Source: an uncultured Gammaproteobacteria bacterium | GTDB lineage: Bacteria > Pseudomonadota > Gammaproteobacteria > UBA9214 | Assembly: GCA_963710815.1 (NCBI GenBank) | Contig: CAVQCA010000157.1 | Span: forward strand, 40,271-104,270 | Length of the DNA: 64,000 nucleotides | Direction: 5' to 3' | Shown: positions 48,400 to 49,955 of the stretch, in pieces | How positions within the stretch are numbered: the first letter of the stretch is position 1 | How the letters are laid out: every line of letters starts with the position of its first letter | Notes under the pieces: model-generated | Databases searched by the model: none | Told to the model about the DNA's origin: nothing | The model's input: the letters and a program-made list of their open reading frames with translations, nothing else | Translations under genes and position numbers: made by a program

Positions 48400-48522
48400 A
48401 AAAAAAAAAAAAAAAAAAAAAAAAAAAAAAAAAAAAAAAAAAAAAAAAAAAAAAAAAAAAAAAAAAAAAAAAAAAAAAAAAAAAAAAAAAAAAAAAAAAA
48501 AAAAAAAAAAAAAAAAAAAAAA
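48400..48522. repeat. 123-nt uninterrupted poly(A) tract
   Basis: Directly visible. It lies between the gtrB 5' region and a GC-rich 330-bp fragment. Confidence 0.95.
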
Positions 48523-48928
48523 GCCTGCGGTTCGCCCCCGGGTGATAGTATCCTGTGTCGGCGGGGAGCATAGAGCCGAATAGATCGTCAGGCGGTGCAC
48601 GGGGTTTGGGCATCAGGGCAACCAGCCGGGCGATGACCTGCGCTTCTACCTGGAACATACCGGCTGGATGCCCCCCTGGCTGGCATTGTTTAGCCGGGCC
48701 GGCACGTTGTTTGGCCTGTCTCACCCTTTCACACAGCGTATCGGCCGTACAGACAAGTTTCCCGGCGATCGATGCCATCTCCACCTATTGCGAATCGTGT
48801 TCCCCCTGGTGCTTGAATATTAGCCACACGTTCCGTTCCCGGAACTCCGGGGAGTGTTTCGTTGTCTCTCCCTCATAAACCCGTCCTCTCAAGAAATGGG
48901 GTCTCCGGAAAGCCCGGAGCAAATCACT

Positions 48929-49892
48929 ATGAGCAAATGCTATTTTCTTGTTCACAAACTCAGTTATCGATACGTAAAAAATATCGCCGACTATATTTTT
49001 CTTCAGCTAAAAAAGCATTCGCCGCTAAAGACTGAATTTCAACTATGTGAAAGTGTCGAGGATGTGCCCTTATTGCCCAATTCCACCGTATACATAATCG
49101 GCGATCCTTTCACTAGGTTTACCAGGGCTCCCGGCTGCAAGTACGTATTCATGAACTTTTCGGTCTTATACCTGCTTGGAAATCCCTTCAATTGCAGCCT
49201 TTCAGGGTATCGATTAATAAAGAGGAAGAGGAAAATCTTCGAGGAAAAACTAGACTGCTACGACTATATCCTTGATTTCTGGCCTGCACATACTGCAAGG
49301 ATGAGACAGAAAGTGATGATGCCGGTCAATTCATTTCCCGTCGCAGTCACCATTGACGAAGCAGCTAATTTTGCGAGCCGAAGGCAAGAAAGTATGACGT
49401 TTGTATCGTCGGTTCTGGCTCGGCCCGGAGATCAAGACTAATCGAAAAATTGCTCGCTCAGGACTTCACCTGTCTCCCATAAGCGGGGCAAATGTCGAAG
49501 ACGTTGCATCTCAGAAAAAAAAAAAAAAAAAAAAAAAAAAAAAAAAAAAAAAAAAAAAAAAAAAAAAAAAAAAAAAAAAAAAAAAAAAAAAAAAAAAAAA
49601 AAAAAAAAAAAAAAAAAAAAAAAAAAAAAAAAAAAAAAAGGAACGAATTACCGGACGGATTGAGGCACTGCTGGCAGACCCTGCAAAACTGGAACAGATG
49701 GGGGAAGCTGCATACAGCTGGATTAGCAATACCCATCTCAGGAATTGTGAGCTCGAGTGGAAGAGAAACGCATCGATGAAATATATGATCACTTCGTATA
49801 CTCGCACAGTCAATGATGGCAGCGCAGTATCTAAGGGGGACAACTGCTTACCTCCTGCCTTGCCAGATGGATCATACGGACATCACAATTAG
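48929..49892 (+). pseudogene. glycosyltransferase (GT1/CgeB-like C-terminus) disrupted by frameshift(s) and by a 125-nt poly(A) insertion
   Basis: N-terminal part is MSKCYFLVHKL… (listed ORF 48854..49441). The frame switches near 49400 (…YDVCIVGSGSARRSRLIEKL…). The poly(A) at 49515-49639 sits inside the ORF, and the C-terminus …RITGRIEALLADPAKLEQMGEAAYSWISNTHL… is typical of a GT C-terminal helix. Confidence 0.5.
49515..49639. repeat. 125-nt uninterrupted poly(A) tract inside a glycosyltransferase reading frame
   Basis: Directly visible. It is translated as poly-Lys in listed ORFs 49401..49892 and 49492..49779. Confidence 0.95.
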
Positions 49893-49901
49893 TAGTGAAT
49901 T

Positions 49902-49955
49902 AAAAAAAAAAAAAAAAAAAAAAAAAAAAAAAAAATTTTTTTTTTTTAAAAAAAA
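49902..49955. repeat. compound homopolymer A34-T12-A8
   Basis: Directly visible, immediately 3' of the disrupted glycosyltransferase. Confidence 0.95.

Follow-up and report, generated by a model that had tools for sequence, protein, structure and literature searches.

Three very long homopolymer tracts interrupt a surface-glycan island in the metagenome-derived genome draft of an uncultured gammaproteobacterium, and it is highly probable that all three are sequencing or assembly artefacts, i.e. filler for unsolved sequence, because related strains hold ordinary DNA at the site of each tract and the sequence surrounding the tracts in this record is visibly poor. In the organism itself one would most likely find a glycosyltransferase gene of ordinary sequence and without interruption here, and intergenic DNA that is likewise ordinary. 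The window, i.e. the whole stretch of DNA that was analysed, is 64,000 nt long. An earlier note on it had listed an assembly or read artefact among several possible origins of the tracts, and this is the option that comparison with relatives supports; the tract positions given there are exact in all three cases:

Tract 1, 48400-48522: A123.
Tract 2, 49515-49639: A125.
Tract 3, 49902-49955: A34 (49902-49935), T12 (49936-49947) and A8 (49948-49955), intergenic, between a glycosyltransferase gene and a polysaccharide pyruvyl transferase gene that converge.

In the window these tracts stand alone: the next-longest homopolymer in the whole 64 kb is 8 nt long and, with an A content of 21.5%, about 1e-18 A-runs of at least 34 nt would be expected by chance. 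Homopolymers of 12 nt or more are also absent from 87 loci taken from public collections (494 kb in total). Scanning with 12-mers and at most one mismatch revealed no Illumina, Nextera, SMRTbell, ONT, 454/Ion, SMART or T7 adapter sequence near the tracts. Both long tracts, i.e. tracts 1 and 2, are preceded by '...CAG', which we dismissed as chance because most of these bases are also present in the relatives.

The tracts share their location with an accumulation of other irregularities. All three lie in a stretch that the earlier note had described as an AT-rich glycosyltransferase island, and with the tracts excluded its GC content is indeed 48%, as compared to 61% in the rest of the window. 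Its main features in this context are as follows:

45001-54087, no strand: low-GC surface-glycan island, holding all three tracts and the window-specific indels.
47404-48195, minus strand: GT2 (GtrB-like) glycosyltransferase (PF00535), 263 aa, truncated in the window.
48926-49892, plus strand: Glyco_trans_1_2 (CgeB-like) glycosyltransferase, broken by frameshifts at 49378, 49454 and 49655 and by tract 2.
50059-50935, minus strand: polysaccharide pyruvyl transferase (PF04230), split into ORFs of 219 aa and 58 aa in the window.

On the minus strand, genes for a PMT_2 membrane glycosyltransferase, GtrA (PF04138) and the GtrB-like protein follow each other in a row; the CgeB-like gene on the plus strand faces the pyruvyl transferase gene, which is convergent on the minus strand, and then come further broken ORFs. 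With GtrA, a GT2 GtrB-like protein and PMT_2 the island resembles gtrABC-type modules, a likeness that concerns only the genomic setting and is unrelated to the tracts. There are no tRNA or tmRNA genes in the whole 64 kb, i.e. the island does not lie beside a tRNA gene. It begins just downstream of a 166-aa ORF (44469-44969) that we take, from its sequence, as a putative greB. Some long ORFs elsewhere in the window are without NCBIfam match: a plus-strand pair of 669 and 642 aa (24383-28327), which is overlapped by a 1280-aa ORF on the minus strand (24410-28252), and a pair of 606 and 567 aa just to the right of the island (55500-59016, plus strand).

Relatives were obtained by protein search followed by retrieval of their contigs. 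When both parts of the interrupted glycosyltransferase served as query, a cluster of three proteins (P0008, P0010 and P0011) was found that is near-identical on both flanks of tract 2; with GtrB as query, the search returned proteins of 96% (P0013) and 87% identity (P0014). The comparison contigs come from four different samples, i.e. L001 from JGI 3300036935, L002 from Logan ERR11523667, L084 from Logan SRR28024173 and L085 from JGI 3300036918, and are 89-99.7% identical to the window, with gene order kept. Other scans yielded only more distant proteins, i.e. relatives of at most 66% identity in a metagenome scan with GtrB and a single relative of 45% in a genome-collection scan with the glycosyltransferase, and a search of the spacer regions of the relatives against Rfam gave no matches. 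The core genes, to judge from their sequences, place the organism among uncultured Gammaproteobacteria; the RecQ protein of the window shares 76-79% identity with proteins that carry the name 'MAG: Gammaproteobacteria / Thiohalobacteraceae'. The protein entries of the window itself belong to a single NCBI/ENA contig whose source supplies no names for them, and the nearest relatives with a name are MAGs.

Alignment with these contigs shows how poor the island record is. Window-specific indels of 1-2 nt occur approximately every 150-250 bp, are not confined to homopolymers and in several cases appear at the same position against two different relatives (48219, 48276-9, 47135-6, 46787-8, 45725, 45699-700, 49377-8 and 49453-4). 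The alignment with L084 (44490-48381) contains 37 gap columns, all of them within 45037-48343, and that with L002 (49979-52261) contains 15 gap positions, whereas the compared core DNA (approximately 1.4 kb) is free of gaps, both over 54088-55018, where identity is 99.7%, and over 44490-45000. As a consequence of such differences, genes that are intact in the relatives look damaged in the window: GtrB has 347 aa (P0013) or 357 aa (P0014) versus 263 aa, with window-specific indels in its region from 47135 to 47224; GtrA has 137 or 146 aa versus a shifted 166 aa; PMT_2 has 522 aa versus 308 aa; and the pyruvyl transferase, which is split in the window with indels at 50804 and at 50029-50179, is an intact protein of 291 aa in L001 and L002.

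At all three tracts the window is also shorter between common anchors than its relatives. Tract 1 corresponds to 125 nt in the window versus 189 nt of ordinary DNA in L085; tract 2 to 131 nt versus 160 nt of ordinary coding DNA with a GC content of 44% in L001 and L002; and tract 3 to 96 nt versus 116 nt of ordinary sequence in the same two contigs. Because each tract thus replaces a longer piece of real sequence in the relatives, the tracts are neither insertions nor expansions, and the length of the filler differs from that of the replaced sequence in three of three cases. Support comes from three independent assemblies for tract 2 (with L085 covering it partially), from two for tract 3 and from one plus a partial one (L084) for tract 1. 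The relatives are 89-99% identical and represent other strains than that of the window, and the result for tract 1 depends on one contig that spans the site.

Tract 2 sits inside the CgeB-like gene, and what it covers is part of a conserved domain. Full-length homologues of this glycosyltransferase have 298-313 aa, and tract 2 appears to be filler for approximately 154 nt, i.e. 52 codons, of the gene; the first 34 nt of the replaced segment are also found in L085. The residues lost under A125 (SKILLNVHLQ(R/H)CNHLEYPRILSAFATKAALVTEYCLGMENYFPPETYICADY) are conserved among homologues down to 40% identity and fall inside the match of P0008 to PF13524 (E = 6.6e-11, residues 32-156). The product of the window gene with the tract removed has no Pfam match, because the core of the PF13524 domain is missing. 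The earlier note had described A125 as lying in-frame. It is correct in that an ORF (49401-49892) reads through the tract, but this continuity is accidental: 125 is not a multiple of 3, the right-hand coding frame, which runs from 49642 (AAC GAA TTA CCG = NELP), is offset by 1 from that of the left flank, and the ORF stays open only thanks to a 1-nt deletion at 49655, specific to the window, which brings the two frames together again. Where tract 2 starts on the left, the relatives carry a run of five A. Independently of the tracts, L002 has a 1-nt deletion of its own at approximately position 414 (window-equivalent 49280), which splits its glycosyltransferase into genes of 144 and 187 aa and which is absent from L001, L085 and the window.

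Tract 1 lies between the gtrB gene and a GC-rich fragment (60% GC over 48523-48860). This fragment is real, but the view taken in the earlier note that it is out of place does not hold: it is no chimera but a decayed mobile-element remnant, and in L085 it is contiguous with the glycosyltransferase gene. Its core is

48680-48859, minus strand: decayed N-terminus of an IS3-family transposase (OrfA region), core of the GC-rich fragment 48523-48905.

A tblastn comparison gave 47% identity over 64 aa (E = 3e-13 in a two-sequence database), and in a comparison with annotated plasmids the DNA of the fragment proved similar to annotated IS3 transposase genes at their 5' ends; the fragment has no Pfam matches. 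It is not a complete IS3 element, since only the first approximately 71 transposase residues align and the DDE catalytic part is absent. In its OrfA-type N-terminus the fragment is thus like IS3-family elements, from which it differs as a decayed remnant with an in-frame stop. This stop is common to the window and L085, which indicates that the remnant is old and real. L085 also spans tract 1, its anchors TCTGCA and CCTGCGGTTCGCCCCCGGG being 189 nt apart, and L084, too, runs on as non-A sequence beyond the left junction of the tract (for approximately 25 nt). Tract 1 most likely is filler for approximately 189 nt of ordinary GC-rich DNA that continues the IS3-like remnant towards the upstream region of gtrB.

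Just outside tract 1 there is also a junction at which strains differ. L084 joins window position 48381 to 54088 through 269 nt of its own (L084 932-1200), and the strain in SRR28024173 therefore does not contain 48382-54087 (5.7 kb), which makes this a strain-variable part of the glycan island. The stretch absent from this strain comprises the IS3 remnant, the CgeB-like glycosyltransferase, the pyruvyl transferase and the subsequent ORFs. Relatedness is also mosaic: between L085 and the window, identity amounts to 98% over the IS3 remnant and the glycosyltransferase (48524-49521) and to 89% over gtrB-gtrA-PMT_2 (45536-48313), where L084 is 95% identical, a pattern suggestive of recombination inside the island. 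The first base of L002 corresponds to 48867, close to where the IS3-like remnant has its outer (left) end (approximately 48905). With a remnant of a mobile element and a strain-variable junction (48381/54088) next to it, tract 1 is at the kind of site at which assembly graphs fork and contigs are broken off. At tract 2, the only hint of such a branch point is the end of L085, which reaches no more than 34 nt into the segment that is replaced, and at tract 3 neither a repeat nor a strain-variable junction was found.

Tract 3 most likely is filler as well, placed in the intergenic DNA that separates the glycosyltransferase gene from the pyruvyl transferase gene, and it is here that the deterioration of the flanks is most evident:

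49642-50200, no strand: degraded stretch on both sides of tract 3, with window-specific indels and differences to L002.

Across 49700-50200 the differences to L002 amount to 5, 10, 3, 18 and 4 per successive 100 nt and then to 0 for 600 nt, i.e. the peaks of 10-18 on the two sides of the tract give way to 0 over a distance of no more than 250 nt. Window-specific indels are found at 49655, 49762-3, 49796, 49835, 49853/9, 49991 and 50029, with more to the right at 50040/3, 50094-5, 50105 and 50179, and, as measured against the related contigs, the sequence is garbled for approximately 12 nt before the tract and 30 nt after it. This rise in differences towards the tract is clear at tract 3 and modest at tracts 1 and 2, which have one or two wrong bases directly at their edges.

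How such filler could arise may be envisaged as follows. At breaks within a strain-variable island, contig ends or graph tips would have acquired A/T-rich low-complexity ends, which could then have been joined, or the gap between them filled, through homopolymer. In de Bruijn assemblers of the SPAdes type, poly-A and poly-T tips are described as leading to chimeric connections and spurious gap closure, and the resulting joins as giving long A/T stretches 'with few mismatches', for which A34T12A8 offers a parallel (PMC6736328; bioRxiv 10.1101/2020.07.28.224584). As in these joins, the stretches here link contig ends at low-coverage or branching sites, with loss of real sequence. There are, however, two differences: poly-A joins are described for RNA-seq, where they go back to mRNA tails (our literature search found descriptions for RNA-seq assemblers and none specific to bacterial genome drafts), whereas the present tracts are in a bacterial genome draft; and they link unrelated or non-adjacent ends, whereas the ends here are true neighbours in correct order and orientation. 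It also speaks against this route that the tracts show no sign of a poly-A read source and that random indels outside of homopolymers are unusual in a purely Illumina-based assembly. Equally artefactual origins would be gap positions written as A or a noisy long-read patch that was left unpolished.

Both of these variants, which belong to the same overall reading of the tracts as artefacts, explain part of the data. A patch of low-coverage, unpolished long reads, with the tracts corresponding to low-quality read segments, would be in line with indels that are random rather than restricted to homopolymers and that occur in the island only, with the compared core being free of them, as well as with the steep climb in error density beside tract 3; in a strain-variable island, moreover, short reads of the dominant strain would fail to polish such a patch. 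Nevertheless, the nearly equal lengths of 123 and 125 nt suggest a systematic rather than a random cause, most of the island is 98-99% identical to the relatives, which is better than raw long reads, and long-read adapter sequence is absent near the tracts, so that we regard this origin as possible but rather doubtful. Conversion of scaffold-gap N runs into A by two-bit base storage (some assemblers read N as A) would account for the perfect purity of the tracts and for two long tracts that are similar in length and fall short of the true sequence (123 and 125 nt versus approximately 189 and 154 nt), as gap estimates from insert sizes would be. Simple conversion, however, leaves unexplained the T12 block between the A-runs of tract 3 and the one or two wrong bases flanking the tracts, and it would need a second cause for the indel-rich island; as the origin of the tracts we therefore consider it unlikely.

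Of the biological explanations, the genuine hyper-expanded slipped-strand tract that had been offered in the earlier note as an alternative, i.e. phase variation switching the glycosyltransferase on and off, seems attractive in so far as the tracts lie in a surface-glycan island, where contingency loci are typically located, an ORF crosses A125 and the relatives have their run of five A at its left edge. In Campylobacter jejuni, a variable surface-polysaccharide locus likewise has homopolymer tracts within its glycosyltransferase genes or adjacent to them, but these are 8-13 nt long (PMC3025981), usually consist of G/C and do no damage to the remainder of the gene, whereas the tracts here comprise 54-125 nt of A/T, with uninterrupted runs of 123, 125 and 34 nt. 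Expansion adds bases and keeps the flanks contiguous; in the window, however, 116-189 nt of ordinary sequence are gone at each tract, including 52 conserved codons of a catalytic domain. The length of slipped-strand tracts is known to be maintained at approximately 7-20 nt. In addition, the relatives have no seed tract at tracts 1 and 3 and at most the five A at tract 2, two of the three tracts are intergenic, and the ORF across A125, whose length would not preserve the frame, depends on the nearby 1-nt deletion. Comparison with the relatives thus contradicts phase variation, to which we assign a very low probability. Insertion of reverse-transcribed polyadenylated RNA, the third origin that had been considered, could invoke long pure A-runs as the hallmark of eukaryotic retro-copies and the nearby IS remnant as a sign that the region accepts mobile DNA. 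Yet, only A/T is found between the flanks, which are not contiguous in the relatives, and no body of inserted sequence precedes any of the tracts; there are no target-site duplications, the target being deleted rather than interrupted; no reverse transcriptase gene was found among the island ORFs scanned; and it is implausible that this should have happened three times within 1.5 kb, with a deletion of comparable length each time. This idea, too, fails, and is the most improbable of all those considered here. Finally, a strain that truly carries runs of more than 100 A, which have replaced short segments of its glycan island three times, is hardly to be expected: such replacement by poly(dA) is without known mechanism and would have to coincide with frameshifts that are specific to this record.

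If runs of more than 100 A were nevertheless real, they would imply a hitherto undescribed bacterial process in which DNA is deleted and poly(dA), made without template or by slippage, takes its place, as well as a replisome able to maintain such tracts. With the tracts as artefacts, there is no new kind of hypermutable tract or retroelement in this organism. Rather, since dozens of spurious frameshifts come on top of the three filler tracts, the record of the island (45.0-54.1 kb) is unreliable for calling genes, pseudogenes or phase variation. This applies to the apparent pseudogenes of gtrB, PMT_2, the CgeB-like glycosyltransferase and the pyruvyl transferase as well as to the poly-lysine and poly-phenylalanine 'proteins', none of which is safe to interpret. 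For genome scans in general, the combination of purity, a length far above 20 nt and the loss of conserved codons relative to near-identical contigs could serve as a quick filter by which such artefacts are recognized.
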